From: Chitinophagaceae bacterium
Lineage (GTDB): Bacteria > Bacteroidota > Bacteroidia > Chitinophagales > UBA10324
Assembly: GCA_947469485.1 (NCBI GenBank)
Contig: CANIPU010000008.1
Span: 11,463-75,462, forward strand
Direction of reading: 5' to 3'
Length of the DNA stretch: 64,000 bases
Positions 2,824 to 6,869 of the stretch are shown in pieces. Within the stretch, counting starts at the first letter, position 1; each line of letters opens with the position of its first letter. Made by a program: the position numbers and the translations under genes. The notes beneath the pieces were generated by a model. It had not been told where the DNA came from and did no database searches. It saw only the letters and a program-made list of their open reading frames with translations.

Positions 2824-3744
2824 TCAAATTATCTTCTTCATCTTAATCACTAACCGCAAAAGTTTCCCCTTCACAATCGCAACATTATTCAAAGTTTGCG
2901 GATCATAATTTTCCGCTGCAATGTTCAGGGTCATATTTCCCTCCTTCATTTCCAATTGCGAGTAATCAATAATTCCTCTTTCCGAACTGAGTTTTCCCAA
3001 TAATAACGGAAGTTCCACCACTACACACTTCACAACTTTCAGTCGCACATTAGTTATTTCGTCCACCAATGTTAGTCGTAATGCTAAATGTCGCACTCCA
3101 ATTCCCACGGAGGAAAACGCACTCACCATGCTCAGATAAAATTCTGAGTTGCTGTCTTTAAACGGCGCAAGCAATTCTATCAAACCAATTTTTATTTTCT
3201 TCAGAGTTTTAAATTCTAATTTCATATCGTTGGTAGCCGCCTTGCTTGCCACCTTCGATGTTCGCGGCGAAGTTTCAATATCAGTAAATGCTTTTATGTC
3301 ATTTTTCAAAGTCAGCAGCGAAGCGGCATCTATATCATAACCACCTGCAGTGAGCGCCGCAAGGTTATCAGTTCCCTTCTGCAAAATAGTATTCCATCTT
3401 TCCTTCGCCTTGCTGTCCTTTATGTTCAGCAGGTCGGTAATTTCAAAGTCAATTTCAGCGCGCAATGTTTCATTGTCTGTATCAGTCGCAAACGCAGCCA
3501 ATATTTTCGAGTGTGTCCACCCGTTGTTCGCGGCTTTCACTTTTGCATTTCTTTTCGCGGTTGCGTTACCGGTGTTATCTGCTTCCTGCTTATCCATCAG
3601 TTTTTCAATCCGGAGTAGCGATGCATCAAGCAATGCCTTCTTCGCAGCAATCGGAATTTTCAAAGTCCAGATAGCAATGAAATTTTCCATAATTGTTTTT
3701 CCGGTAATCCCGGCTTCGTAGTTTCTGGTTTGTCTGTCTTCCAT
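2824..3744 (-). CDS. hypothetical protein (ORFan), 306 aa
   Basis: Uninterrupted 306-aa ORF in a segment clearly richer in G+C than its neighbours; two 60-nt lines I counted were about 50 percent G+C, against about 30 percent in typical lines elsewhere. No signal peptide and no motif I recognise. The N-terminal two thirds look helical and charged, the C-terminal third beta-rich. The plus-strand ORFs across it are fragmented and low-complexity. Confidence 0.65.
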   Translation of the reverse strand: MEDRQTRNYEAGITGKTIMENFIAIWTLKIPIAAKKALLDASLLRIEKLMDKQEADNTGNATAKRNAKVKAANNGWTHSKILAAFATDTDNETLRAEIDFEITDLLNIKDSKAKERWNTILQKGTDNLAALTAGGYDIDAASLLTLKNDIKAFTDIETSPRTSKVASKAATNDMKLEFKTLKKIKIGLIELLAPFKDSNSEFYLSMVSAFSSVGIGVRHLALRLTLVDEITNVRLKVVKCVVVELPLLLGKLSSERGIIDYSQLEMKEGNMTLNIAAENYDPQTLNNVAIVKGKLLRLVIKMKKII

Positions 3745-3795
3745 AACTTTAAGTTTTTAATTTTTAGTTTTTCACTTTTAACTTTTCACTTATTT

Positions 3796-4005
3796 CTATT
3801 CCTTTAACGCAATCGCTAAGTCACAGGTTATAGGGAATCTTACATGAATTTTATGTGCAATTTTTCCGGGCAGTCCAGTTCCCTCTGTGTCACAGTAATC
3901 GGGACACTGATGTCCTATGAAATAATAAATCAGTTTTTTCCTGACATAATTTTTACAATTAAAATGAAATAACAAATCGTGTTTTCCGTTTAATAAGAAA
4001 ATCAT
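3796..4005 (-). CDS. hypothetical small protein, 69 aa (doubtful)
   Basis: ORF 51 bp upstream of, and co-directional with, the 306-aa gene. Its start lies only 5 bp from the divergent HTH ORF start, leaving no promoter space. No recognisable motif. Confidence 0.25.
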   Translation of the reverse strand: MIFLLNGKHDLLFHFNCKNYVRKKLIYYFIGHQCPDYCDTEGTGLPGKIAHKIHVRFPITCDLAIALKE

Positions 4006-4010
4006 TTTCT

Positions 4011-4274
4011 ATGGAAACCCGTGGTTACTGCACTGTTACACTCACACCCTACTGTTACATCATCTTCACGGCAACCCAGATTATTATTCTGGGTTACCTC
4101 GCCGAAAAAAAATCAGTTCAGGAAATTGCAGGGATAAGGCACACCACCGAAAAAACAATTTACAACGAGATACAGGATATGATGCACAAAATTGATTGCC
4201 ACAGTCAACCGGCTTTTCTAATGGAATGCTTCTACCAGAAACTTCTTTTTCAAAACTGTAACACAGCGGCATAA
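4011..4274 (+). CDS. stand-alone LuxR/GerE-type helix-turn-helix DNA-binding protein, 87 aa
   Basis: Residues 19-70 (FTATQIIILGYLAEKKSVQEIAGIRHTTEKTIYNEIQDMMHKIDCHS) fit the LuxR C-terminal pattern LTxRExxVLxLxAxGxSxKEIAxxLxISxxTVxxHxxxIxxKL. There is no receiver or ligand-binding domain. The true start may be internal. Confidence 0.6.
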   Translation: METRGYCTVTLTPYCYIIFTATQIIILGYLAEKKSVQEIAGIRHTTEKTIYNEIQDMMHKIDCHSQPAFLMECFYQKLLFQNCNTAA

Positions 4275-4306
4275 ATGAATTACTTCGTTATTTATAAAAA
4301 TACAAA

Positions 4307-4580
4307 GCATCCCGCTGAATTTATTCTTGCTTACACCCAATTTATTTATGCTTACATGAAATTTATTTACGCTCGCAACAAATTTTCTTCGTCTTACACT
4401 GAAATTATTTCCACTTGCACGGAAAAGATGTCGTCTTACGCGCAATTTATTTCCGCTTACACACGCTGCAATACCACTTACAATGAAATTATTTCCGCTT
4501 ACACAGTAAAGATGTCAGCTTACGCGCGTTAGATGAATGCTTACACGCAATTTATTGATGCTTACCCGCAATAGATAACC
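4307..4580. repeat. tandem array of 13 x 21-bp degenerate direct repeats (consensus GCTTACACGCAATTTATTTCC)
   Basis: The C-T-(T/C)-(A/G)-C core recurs at 4330, 4351, 4372, 4393, 4414, 4435, 4456, 4477, 4498, 4519, 4540 and 4561, exactly 21 bp apart. A degenerate unit precedes at 4307. Confidence 0.9.
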
Positions 4581-4592
4581 ATCGGCACGGTT
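4573..4592. repeat. right copy of the 20-nt imperfect direct repeat
   Basis: AGATAacCATCGGCACGGTT, 18/20 identical to 530..549. Overlaps the last unit of the 21-bp array. Confidence 0.5.
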
Positions 4593-4728
4593 TGCAAAAC
4601 CATTGTCGCAAAAATTTCTTTTGTTTACAAGAGTTGAATTCACATCATCATAAAAAATAGTTCTGTCGTATCAGGTTTTTTAATCACTGCCGGTATTTTT
4701 TCTTTTAGTTTTGCACACCGGATATCAG

Positions 4729-4767
4729 TAAAAAAATCCCCGATCTCTTTTTAAAGAAACCGGGGAT
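4729..4767 (-). terminator. rho-independent terminator of the 692-aa cargo gene
   Basis: On the minus strand, an AATCCCCG ... CGGGGATT stem followed by a run of 7 T (plus-strand A run 4730-4736), 24 nt downstream of the stop at 4791. Confidence 0.7.
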
Positions 4768-4790
4768 TGGTGTTTTAATCAAAATCTGTA

Positions 4791-6869
4791 TTAATCCTTA
4801 ACGAGTTTTATTATTTGTCTGTTTTCTGTGGTTTGTAGGGTTATAAAATAAATGCCTTTAGCCCATGTTGCGCAATTCAGCTCTGTTGGTTTTATAACAT
4901 TACCCGCTTCAATAATTCTTCCGGCTAAATCCTGCACTATATAATTTGTTGATTCATGGCAATTAATATTAAAACTCTCGTGTGCCGGATTAGGATAAAT
5001 AGTTGCATTTTGGTTGTTGATGCTTGATGTTCCCCCTATTATTTCCTGGTGTAATTCCACAACCGCATTATTAGTTGCAACAGGGCTTAAGTAATCAAAA
5101 TAAATATTTGCCATCTGAGGAATTACAGTTCCGTAAATATTTCCATTGGCCTGCTCAATTTTAAACCGAACAAATCCATGACTTGCAGGTTCGTTTGAAT
5201 TACTATCGGCTAATTCAATGCCGGTGAATTGTAATATCAGTTTGTTGCCAATTACCAACCAGTTGTAACTTGCGCTTGAAGCTCCTGGAGTAATAGAATT
5301 AATAGTTAAATGAGAATCAATAATTGTTTCAACTCTGACATCATGCGCAACTGCTGAACCGGTATTCTGGAAATGAATGGTGTAGGTAAAATCATCATTA
5401 ATTTGTGTTTGTAAATAATCAACAATTCCGTCTTGAGGATGAAGAGTTGAAGAAACAAGCATTGCATTCGGATCAAATGGAACACCAATCTGCACACACA
5501 TATTATCGTTGTTGTTAAACAGTGAACAATCAAATACACCACCGCCAACTGATGCAGCAAAACAATAAGGTGTACCAATAGTATCACATCCGGCCTTAAT
5601 CATAATTACAACAGATGTATCAGCGCCGGCAACCAAATTGCCTAAATCAATCGAATATTGATTATTGCCAAGTGAAGTAAAAGCTACAGGTGAATAAAGT
5701 ATTGAAGTGGAATCATTTAAAGTTAAAGTCACCAATGCATTATCATTCATTGTTCCGTTGTTTGAAACAAATAGTTGAACAAAACCGGTATCACAAACAC
5801 CAAGCGGATCGTTCCCCCACCATAATGTTGAATCAGGCTCACCATAAACCCATATTGAAGTTGTTAAATCGCTGCAATAGTCAACAATAGTATCAGCAAT
5901 CATGTTGTTATCAGTGCTGTCATTATAACCGGCAAATGAGTATAAATAACTTCCGCTAACCGGGCAATTAGTAGCATAATTTTGATTGGCAACATTGTTT
6001 GTTGTCCATGAATAAGTGCCCGGATCAACATACTTACTGTAATATCCCTGCATATCGGTAAACATGTATTGGGTTACACCGCTTGTAGTATCTGTAATCA
6101 CAACAGGCTTATTCATTAAAGGATAATCAGTTCCTCCGTAATTACAATCAAAATCCAAATCAGCAAAAACGCGACCACTGATTCTGTTTTGATTTGTTTG
6201 CGGAGAATAAATACTATCAGGACTGAATAACCATGATTCGTTGTTGGCCGTCCATTGTGTAGGATAATTATAGTTTGATGCAACAAAAGCCTGTGTGCCT
6301 GTTGCGTTTTGTATTCCTAATATGCCTGCACCGGCATTCCATGCAGAGCATAAATCTTTTTGTCGGATATTAATTTCTATGTTGTTTGATCCTTCATATA
6401 AAATCAGTTGACCGGAATAAAATAGATTATTGCAACTGAAAAATGGTATAGAATCAAAAGACATTACAAATTTTCTGCTTGGGGGTAAACCATAAACCTG
6501 ATGATGCATTGTGCCTGTTCCTGTTACCGCTGGTAATAAATCCTGAAACGGGAAATAGATTGAATTCATCGGATTGGTATTTGATGGAATTGGTGTTGAT
6601 ATATTCCATTGACTATAACTGCCTGCACCAGCCAAATCAAAAGTGATATAACTATTGGTACTGAAAAGAAGTTGATTATATGATTGTCCGAAAAAGTAAA
6701 AATCAAAGCCAATAGACATTGGCATGCTATACTGGTCATCCACATAATTCAACACTTCAATACCCGAATCAAAAGGCATTGGATTGTATGGAATCTGGCT
6801 AACAAAATAAGTTTGTGCTTTAACTGAAATTGATGAAATCAGTATTGCAAGAACTAATATTTTTTTCAT
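4791..6869 (-). CDS. secreted protein with T9SS type A sorting domain, 692 aa
   Basis: Signal peptide MKKILVLAILISSISVKAQ. Has the pre-CTD module DPNAM...YTIHFQNTGSAVAHDVRV...NEPASHGFVRFKI, common in Bacteroidota secreted proteins. Ends in YPNPAHESFNI...GIYFITL...KLVKD. Confidence 0.8.
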   Translation of the reverse strand: MKKILVLAILISSISVKAQTYFVSQIPYNPMPFDSGIEVLNYVDDQYSMPMSIGFDFYFFGQSYNQLLFSTNSYITFDLAGAGSYSQWNISTPIPSNTNPMNSIYFPFQDLLPAVTGTGTMHHQVYGLPPSRKFVMSFDSIPFFSCNNLFYSGQLILYEGSNNIEINIRQKDLCSAWNAGAGILGIQNATGTQAFVASNYNYPTQWTANNESWLFSPDSIYSPQTNQNRISGRVFADLDFDCNYGGTDYPLMNKPVVITDTTSGVTQYMFTDMQGYYSKYVDPGTYSWTTNNVANQNYATNCPVSGSYLYSFAGYNDSTDNNMIADTIVDYCSDLTTSIWVYGEPDSTLWWGNDPLGVCDTGFVQLFVSNNGTMNDNALVTLTLNDSTSILYSPVAFTSLGNNQYSIDLGNLVAGADTSVVIMIKAGCDTIGTPYCFAASVGGGVFDCSLFNNNDNMCVQIGVPFDPNAMLVSSTLHPQDGIVDYLQTQINDDFTYTIHFQNTGSAVAHDVRVETIIDSHLTINSITPGASSASYNWLVIGNKLILQFTGIELADSNSNEPASHGFVRFKIEQANGNIYGTVIPQMANIYFDYLSPVATNNAVVELHQEIIGGTSSINNQNATIYPNPAHESFNINCHESTNYIVQDLAGRIIEAGNVIKPTELNCATWAKGIYFITLQTTENRQIIKLVKD

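Follow-up and report, generated by a model that had tools for sequence, protein, structure and literature searches.

What holds a row of 21-bp direct repeats in phase immediately behind the gene of a minimal LuxR-type DNA-binding protein, and does such a row act as protein, as RNA or as DNA? The question is raised by a locus in a stretch of 64,000 nucleotides (the window), which is core chromosome of a freshwater member of the Bacteroidota with about 35% GC. An initial annotation, made from the letters alone, had proposed an iteron, centromere-like or multi-operator array. The features of the locus, together with the arrays upstream of distant relatives of one of its genes, are collected in Table 1.

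Table 1. Features of the locus in the window and 21-bp arrays upstream of distant members of the 300-aa protein family
Feature	Position	Strand	Description
306-aa gene, divergent from the HTH gene	2824..3744	-	large unnamed family; helix bundle and transthyretin/CarboxypepD_reg-like sandwich
Single unit-like site, possible operator	3838..3858	+	TCTTACATGAATTTTATGTGC; matrix match 3838-3854 TCTTACATGAATTTTAT
87-aa stand-alone LuxR/GerE (NarL-type) four-helix HTH gene	4011..4274	+	candidate array binder
Leader, HTH stop to first good unit	4275..4328	+	contains one decayed unit, 4308-4328
Core array, 12 units x 21 bp	4329..4580	+	consensus nCTTACACGCAAtTTATnnnn; TRF, autocorrelation, chain count
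Decayed units, 3' array edge	4581..4643	+	ATCGGCACGG..., ATTGTCGCAA..., GTTTACAAGA...
Hairpin terminator	4735..4768	.	separates the HTH/array unit from the convergent T9SS-cargo gene
L131/L132, P0161		minus	array, about 11-13 units; unit GAATGTGCAGCGGAnnnnAAT
L133, P0156			array, 11 units; unit TTTCTnnnnTTTGACAnnGTC, GAC-N3-GTC dyad
L138-L140, P0165			array, about 13 units, 105 bp from array end to gene; unit nnTyACAGCAAAGAAATnnnn
L136/L137, P0167			weaker 21-periodic stretch; degenerate, no clear consensus
L128-L130, P0159			no array

The core array consists of twelve head-to-tail units without an indel. The pentamer CT(T/C)(A/G)C starts at 4330 and recurs at each 21-bp step through 4561, forming a chain of 12, while the longest such chain in shuffles of the window (n=200) is 2, and the expected count of 12-long chains with this step is about 1e-28. 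TRF yields periods of 21, 42 and 84 at the array. The autocorrelation reaches 0.61 at a lag of 21 bp and 0.58 at one of 42 bp, while it stays at 0.19–0.31 for the other lags between 5 and 44, and it reveals no half-period (10–11 bp) sub-repeat. The 84-bp signal is caused by a four-unit duplication, since units 4–7 are similar to units 8–11. The consensus, in the 21-bp register starting at 4329, is GCTTACACGCAATTTATTTCC, with a subtype ending in ...AAAGATGTC. Thus the pentamer, the step, the consensus and the subtype given in the initial annotation are all borne out, and the tandem-repeat search that it had called for confirms the period. Its count of thirteen units needs a qualification: twelve are good, and the thirteenth is the decayed unit at 4308. 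Decayed units are also seen beyond the core array, up to about 4643.

The unit statistics were drawn from 40 units at four loci. The information-rich positions of the unit are C2, T4 A5 C6 A7, A11 A12 and A16 T17, while positions 18–21 and 1 are free. A T and a C of the core had been thought invariant; the C is, being present at position 6 in all 40 units, while the T is not, as position 3 is occupied by T in 31 units, G in seven, and A and C in one each.

The gene preceding the array encodes a protein of 87 aa that is little besides a LuxR/GerE/NarL-type four-helix DNA-binding domain. It passes the curated threshold of the Pfam family GerE (PF00196; 26.5 bits, cut-off 23.5) at residues 19–67, the match covering the four-helix domain, and its residues 16–78 align with the DNA-binding domain of VraR (E 0.008) and, weakly, with GerE (1fse, E 0.25). 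The gene is under purifying selection, as the changes between the window and the relative L001 are distributed as 0/2/6 over the codon positions. Among 5.8 billion proteins only three relatives were found (98, 71 and 67% identity), and a fourth further lineage, X13, comes from a drinking-water metagenome contig. The 21-bp array is located directly 3' of the HTH gene in all five HTH-bearing lineages, so the co-occurrence that had been suggested as a check holds for every relative found. The copy number changes by whole units only (L002 has 11 units, and a second contig of X14 has one unit fewer); each change of array length is a multiple of 21, and the phase is never broken. Free variation of the period, which had been named as evidence against an array of this kind, is not seen among the relatives.

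The array is also conserved in its sequence. Between the window and L002 it is 71% identical, and the last five units are 81% identical, whereas the third codon positions of the HTH gene retain 56% and the flank after the array 44%. As the array outlasts these neutral positions, the constraint has to be on DNA or RNA. Moreover, orthologous units match at 17–19 of 21 bases, while the mean for paralogous units is 60%; hence the units are kept individually and are not homogenised. The leader is fast-evolving: the X13 lineage shows 16 substitutions and three insertions of one base, and in L002 and L003 the length differs by 21 bp. The decayed 3' edge has diverged strongly, by 28.6% from L001 and, over 4581–4707, by 12.6% from X13. 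For the array the divergence from L001 is 9.5%.

The array is selected at the nucleotide level. Its changes relative to L001 are distributed over the codon positions as 8/7/9 (seven synonymous and 16 non-synonymous codon changes), and they are equally flat in all six frames. The changes private to X13 (n=8) are distributed as 2/4/2, and the substitutions pooled over the two close lineages (n=32) as 10/11/11. The neighbouring 306-aa gene, compared with L001, yields 18/11/50, and by our own arithmetic the pooled array counts depart from the coding pattern with p of about 5e-4. Thus no excess of third-position or synonymous changes is observed in the array ORF. At the larger distance of L002 the identity by codon position is 70/77/68%, and the information content of the unit (40 units, four loci) lacks 3-base periodicity. 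The sole invariant base of the unit, C6, is the synonymous base of a Tyr codon: Tyr is TAC in 32 of 32 units, while the genes of the window use TAT in 79% of cases. The majority Thr codon in the units is ACG, used genome-wide at 4%, yet Phe stays TTT. Such a combination of atypical Tyr and Thr codons with an ordinary Phe codon does not result from translational selection.

The reading frames tell the same story. The two ORFs listed in the initial annotation as read-throughs of the array, 4275..4532 (+) and 4218..4445 (−), are both present, and the stop codon of the HTH gene (TAA, 4272–4274) abuts the ATG at 4275 of the 85-aa array ORF. The array frame equals the HTH frame at all four loci; this was rejected as evidence for coding, because unit-sized (21-bp) indels account for it. 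In-frame TAG codons occur in the third-last unit and again in the last one (4530 and 4572 in the window), and both are common to the window, X13 and L002. The array had been said to run two units past the TAG at 4530; it does, and these two units are identical in 34 of 42 bases between the window and L002. Recoding or read-through of TAG as a rescue of the ORF was rejected, since TAG is an ordinary stop here (the genes of the window end with TAA in 14 cases, TGA in 10 and TAG in two) and no tRNA genes are found in the window. In L002 and L003 no start codon precedes unit 4. An ORF running intact from start to stop over the repeats exists only in L001, where TGG replaces TAG (99 aa). The array ORF has no protein-family or PDB match, and among the array ORFs looked up in the protein collection by exact match, only a 50-aa ORF of L136 is present, as a singleton cluster that brings no further variants. 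An amphipathic heptad pattern is nevertheless visible, with I or M in position a and Y or C(H) in position d in the window and L140 frames. The claim that the constraint acts on DNA or RNA rather than on protein is therefore upheld by the flat codon positions, the invariant synonymous C, the conservation after the stop and the codon usage. The opposite finding, a longer intact ORF with synonymous variation in relatives, turned up in part: the former in L001, and something like the latter at position 3 in L002 (GCT/GCG/TCG/TCA).

As to whether the array acts as DNA or RNA, the units have diverged from each other by about 40%, yet not a single indel is observed in any of the variable linkers, which argues for selection on the spacing itself. 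Helical phasing of DNA, with 21 bp making two turns, fits this spacing better than does a sponge of RNA. The structure of the array transcript is not supported (z = −0.25, covariation term +1.46), and the only Rfam match is below the gathering level and falls on the terminator hairpin; a structured RNA was rejected, as there is neither a folding signal nor covariation nor an Rfam family. That the array works at the DNA rather than the RNA level, that the HTH protein binds it, and that there is a regulatory output is what we infer from these observations.

A position matrix was built from the 40 units and applied to the whole window, both strands. The best score outside the array in the 64 kb, 14.5, belongs to the site at 3838, the next best being 11.5. 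The site lies inside the 266-bp promoter region common to the HTH gene and the divergent 306-aa gene, and it is identical in L001. It is situated within the best-conserved block of this intergenic region, which elsewhere can hardly be aligned with L002; the block matching the site is conserved in L002 but has no matrix score there. Such a site is the signature expected of an operator, as judged from the sequences of a single clade. The dyad of the unit, TT(A/G)C-AC-GCAA, is imperfect; it is perfect where A5 is replaced by G, and A16 and T17 are outside it. On the other side of the array, the next gene (4791–6869, minus strand), encoding a T9SS cargo protein, is convergent, and a hairpin terminator precedes it; therefore the array has no downstream gene to control.

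The surroundings are chromosomal. T9SS cargo genes flank the locus on both sides, and genes for DinB, an M4 peptidase, UppS, BamA, two Skp proteins and MurI are located within 20 kb; the same sequence is present unchanged in many lake metagenomes, in contigs of up to 160 kb. No Rep protein, Par NTPase (ParA/ParM/TubZ) or integrase is encoded among the ORFs within 20 kb, in agreement with an earlier remark. A tblastn search of 72,556 plasmids and 50,697 phages with the 306-aa protein returned no relatives, a related subgroup of its family has no match among the viral contigs of IMG/VR, and the defence, phage and NCBIfam models (PADLOC, PHROG, NCBIfam) produced no match either. On these grounds a defence system and a phage or plasmid origin were rejected.

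The 306-aa gene itself leads to a second set of arrays. Close relatives of its product are few, while a profile search retrieved 1093 representative clusters of proteins of about 300 aa. A structure model based on an alignment of 19 sequences (pLDDT 85) features very long helices at residues 1–212 and a C-terminal sandwich, and only the sandwich has structural neighbours; a three-sequence model (pLDDT 40) was useless. No DNA-binding fold is apparent in the predicted structure. We inspected the 5' flanks of five distant family members with about 20–25% identity; P0158, with only about 100 bp of contig ahead of the gene, and P0162 are outside this set. The arrays found (Table 1) are on the 5' side of the gene. 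No HTH gene was found in what is assembled of the flanks of L131, L133 and L136, and the flank of L140 ends at the contig end; the HTH protein therefore cannot be the general binder of such arrays, nor is it established as their universal partner. As a background, 647 kb of unrelated metagenomic loci contain three true 21-bp arrays, all of them eukaryote-like satellites. A loose DNA pattern scan of metagenomes returned 120 chance matches, periodic only in L025, L094 and L100, which are unrelated eukaryote-like satellites. The exact period of 21 in every locus, with differing units, is also what heptad coding would predict.

The L140 unit shares T3, T/C4, A5, C6, A7, A11, A12, A16 and T17 with that of the window. 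These common positions are the information-rich ones in the window, three of which fall on third codon positions. The third codon positions are the best conserved in L140 (0.83/0.98/1.11 bits), and the array extends past the first in-frame stop with units that contain stops. The nucleotide-level signature is found again in a second, anciently diverged array, and this strengthens the nucleic-acid reading. Derivation of the array from the 300-aa gene, or its service as a cassette for that gene, was rejected (best tblastx E = 0.03).

Based on five inspectable distant loci and the window's own clade, it is conceivable, albeit on the unlikely side, that we deal with a module not described so far: a Bacteroidota family of about 1,100 clusters of ~300-aa proteins regularly accompanied by a 5' period-locked 21-bp array under nucleotide-level constraint, with the LuxR-type HTH gene as a clade-specific addition. 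In such a module the unit sequence would differ by locus, the constraint would extend to third positions of codons in the sole open frame, and the array would be either a new cis element co-evolving with the protein or a dual-use element combining DNA and a micro-ORF. The association of period-locked 21-bp arrays with this large unannotated family appears to be undescribed; a literature search for it returned nothing relevant.

Other explanations have to be weighed. The array could code for one or several small heptad-repeat, coiled-coil-like proteins, translationally coupled to the HTH gene at TAA–ATG and again at TAG–ATG, evolving rapidly through gain and loss of units and acting as partners of the long-helix 300-aa protein. 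Like known heptad-repeat micro-proteins, the array has a period of exactly 7 codons, and it keeps this period at five independent loci with differing unit sequences; positions a and d of the co-directional frame are taken by hydrophobic or aromatic residues (a = I/M, d = Y/H/C; AYTQFIS in the window, AYSKEIA in L140, NDFQTFQ in L136). An ORF starting with ATG extends over the greater part of the array in the window, in L001 (where it is intact, 99 aa), X13, L131(+), L136 and L140, the L002 variation at position 3 looks synonymous, T never occurs at position 10 in the 40 units, which avoids TAA at codon 4, and dN/dS of about 0.7 is compatible with the 24 substitutions. Nonetheless we regard this coding explanation as unlikely, though it is a serious rival. 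The peptide is not under purifying selection: the substitutions are spread evenly over the codon positions, and third positions are conserved at least as well as first and second ones in the window, L133 and L140 arrays. The Tyr and Thr codons run against the genome usage while Phe remains TTT, the in-frame TAGs and the units behind them are conserved between clades, start codons are missing in L002 and L003, a frameshift is seen in L136, stops interrupt the array of L140, and no family or PDB entry matches the ORF. The possibility that the array functions as RNA, either as an extended 3' UTR of the HTH transcript or, elsewhere, as a leader of the 300-aa gene, with an unstructured motif binding or sponging an RNA-binding protein, shares with the preferred reading the constraint at the nucleotide level. 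The array is within the HTH transcription unit, upstream of its sole terminator-like hairpin, and at the other loci the array strand with the ORF-like frame is co-directional with the adjacent gene. An RNA is still improbable, given that binding of a protein to RNA does not need exact 21-nt spacing with zero linker indels, that no structure (z = −0.25), covariation or Rfam match is predicted, and that no gene for an RNA-binding protein is nearby and the stretch is found in no RNA run.

The two remaining explanations are much weaker. A neutral minisatellite without function, its units kept similar by unequal crossing-over, would account for the variation by whole units (12, 11 and the minus-one variant), for the 84-bp higher-order duplication and for close comparisons, in which the array diverges about as much as the neighbouring DNA (9.5% relative to L001). 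It is very improbable, as the motif and the unit-specific features survive between clades in which neutral sites are saturated (81% against 44–56%), orthologous units are closer than paralogous ones with little homogenisation, the L140 array has the same information-rich positions, and the occurrence of arrays beside one protein family is far above the background of about three eukaryote-like satellites per 647 kb. Almost no credence can be given to a plasmid-type iteron or a parC-like centromere with the HTH protein serving replication control or partition, the reading that the initial annotation had entertained. Direct repeats of iteron size (12 x 21 bp, where iteron replicons have about 17–22-bp direct repeats in helical phase) do adjoin the gene of a small DNA-binding protein. 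However, no Rep gene is adjacent and the locus is not on a plasmid or phage but on the core chromosome (UppS, BamA, two Skp, MurI; contigs up to 160 kb from many lake metagenomes), with neither ParA/ParM/TubZ nor an integrase encoded within 20 kb, and the searches of plasmids, phages and IMG/VR gave no relatives. The partition NTPase, which a centromere would have in the same cassette, is missing; the small HTH gene abutting the array is LuxR-type, and the 306-aa protein, a helical bundle with a transthyretin-like domain, is not a winged-helix protein.

We return to the operator array, which we consider the best reading, plausible, if short of probable: a phased DNA array coated by the adjacent LuxR-type HTH protein and acting on the divergent promoter through titration or looping. 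The array would then be a cis-acting DNA element in which about 12 operator-like sites follow one another. Within a site, roughly one helical turn would separate two conserved blocks (TTACA ... AT), and recurrence of the sites every two turns would place all of them on one face of the helix. The 87-aa protein most likely would bind cooperatively, one dimer per 21-bp unit, and the result would be a one-sided nucleoprotein filament, about 270 bp long, at the 3' end of the HTH gene. Jointly with the site at 3838, the array might titrate the regulator or loop the DNA, and either would result in control of the divergent pair of the HTH and 306-aa genes. Counted against this are the arrangement of the units as direct repeats with an imperfect dyad, the lack of a matrix score for the promoter site in L002, and the absence of a downstream gene.

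The closest known parallel is BvgA~P, whose DNA-binding part is a HTH of the LuxR/NarL type and which binds as head-to-head dimers centred at 22-bp intervals along one face of the DNA; at Pptx six dimers are bound in a row, using weak sites (PMC7250471). The spacing of sites by two helical turns (21–22 bp) on one face is found in the window as well, at exactly 21 bp; the HTH class is the same, and the units contain two conserved blocks about one turn apart. In an array of the BvgA kind each site would be an inverted pair of half-sites for a head-to-head dimer; the window unit offers the imperfect dyad described above. Unlike BvgA, which is a phosphorylated response regulator acting upstream of a promoter, the candidate binder in the window is a bare HTH domain, and its array has 12–13 units, follows the regulator's own gene and has no gene beyond it.

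The protein itself resembles GerE of Bacillus subtilis, also a small stand-alone four-helix DNA-binding domain of the LuxR/NarL type. At sporulation promoters GerE recognizes 12-bp boxes, one at a time or in pairs, and it is not known to bind long phased arrays. The iterons of plasmids (RepA, pi, RepE) and titration arrays of the P1 incA type are similar to the array in being phased direct repeats of 17–22 bp by the gene of a DNA-binding protein, and the idea of a titration sink is common to both; they differ in that the window has a chromosomal array with no Rep protein, replicon or plasmid relatives. In R1 parC/ParR, the pSM19035 omega heptads and TP228 parH/ParG, small proteins cooperatively coat short tandem repeats to form a filament. 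Tandem short repeats and a small DNA-binding protein, as a candidate, are present in the window too, but these centromeres are on plasmids, upstream of a par operon with a partition NTPase that the window lacks, and their known binders are ribbon-helix-helix or winged-helix proteins, not LuxR-type ones.

As an operator array of a LuxR-type HTH protein, the row of repeats would be new in being unusually long, chromosomal and 3' of the regulator gene. If the HTH protein coats it, this would be an unusually long chromosomal one-faced array of operators (12–13 units) served by a minimal LuxR-type domain, and its position at the 3' end of the regulator gene would offer a simple natural system for the study of cooperative filaments, titration and looping. 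We rank the association of the arrays with the 300-aa family as the more interesting lead. Arrays of this type can mislead gene callers and thus end up annotated as small proteins. A large, fully unannotated family of the Bacteroidota appears to be associated with 21-bp arrays; these provide a handle on its role, and this may outweigh the operator itself.

The 306-aa gene divergent from the HTH gene (positions 2824–3744 of the window, minus strand) belongs to a large unnamed family of 1093 representative clusters, with an architecture of a bundle of long helices followed by a transthyretin-like C-terminal domain. Arrays of 21-bp units, differing in unit sequence from that of the window, also lie 5' of distant members of this family (loci L131, L133, L136 and L140). 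As far as their flanks are assembled, L131, L133 and L136 show no HTH gene. The contigs break off shortly before the family gene, or before its array, within the first approximately 500 bp at L138, L139 and L140, and within the first approximately 100 bp at L134 and L135. Since independent assemblies all end at an equivalent place, this suggests repeat-induced assembly breaks. The sequence upstream of these breaks is hidden, and possibly contains an HTH gene. Satellites with 21-bp units occur elsewhere too: L025, L094 and L100, caught by the loose pattern scan of metagenomes, are eukaryote-like satellites unconnected with the window array.

Within the window array, units 4–7 are similar to units 8–11, forming an 84-bp higher-order repeat (4393–4546), and therefore a four-unit block was gained in the window lineage. 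The TAG/ATG junction of the array is also found at L002, and L001 has TGG/ATG in its place. A conserved 13-codon mini-ORF arises from this junction, reading MNAYTQFIDAYPQ or MTAYTQNIVAYTQ up to the stop codon.

Short repeats and junctions in the window and at loci of the 306-aa family
Feature	Location	Description
TAA/ATG stop-start junction	window 4272–4277	after the HTH gene
TAG/ATG stop-start junction	window 4530–4535	within the array; frame common to the TAA/ATG junction
Hairpin, 16-bp arms	window 4735–4768	between convergent units; terminator-like
7/14-bp tandem repeat TAACTTTTAGTTTT	window 3744–3791	at the 306-aa gene start and immediately upstream
Hairpin-forming element, ~100 nt, two copies	L133, about 2380–2480 and 2620–2730	GAAAGCTTGTCC...GGACAACTTTC
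(TAATGGT)n, 7-bp tandem repeat	L136, 3915–3995	immediately 3' of the stop codon that ends the 305-aa family gene

The window hairpin yields a sub-threshold Rfam match to NsiR1 (29 bits vs. the cut-off of 39); its region matches other contigs in metagenome runs X14 and X18 but has no second copy within the window. Most of the tandem repeat at the 306-aa gene start (3754–3791) features a depth spike; as pieces from many unrelated metagenome contigs align there, this short stretch is multi-copy or of low complexity. At L133, both copies of the hairpin-forming element separate the array from the 303-aa gene; the element is possibly a REP-like or other small mobile repeat.

The HTH protein itself (4011–4274) retains five cysteines, C7, C15, C63, C73 and C83, in all four sequences, and its N-terminal METRG is likewise invariant. 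This is unusual in a GerE-type domain and may reflect redox or metal sensing.
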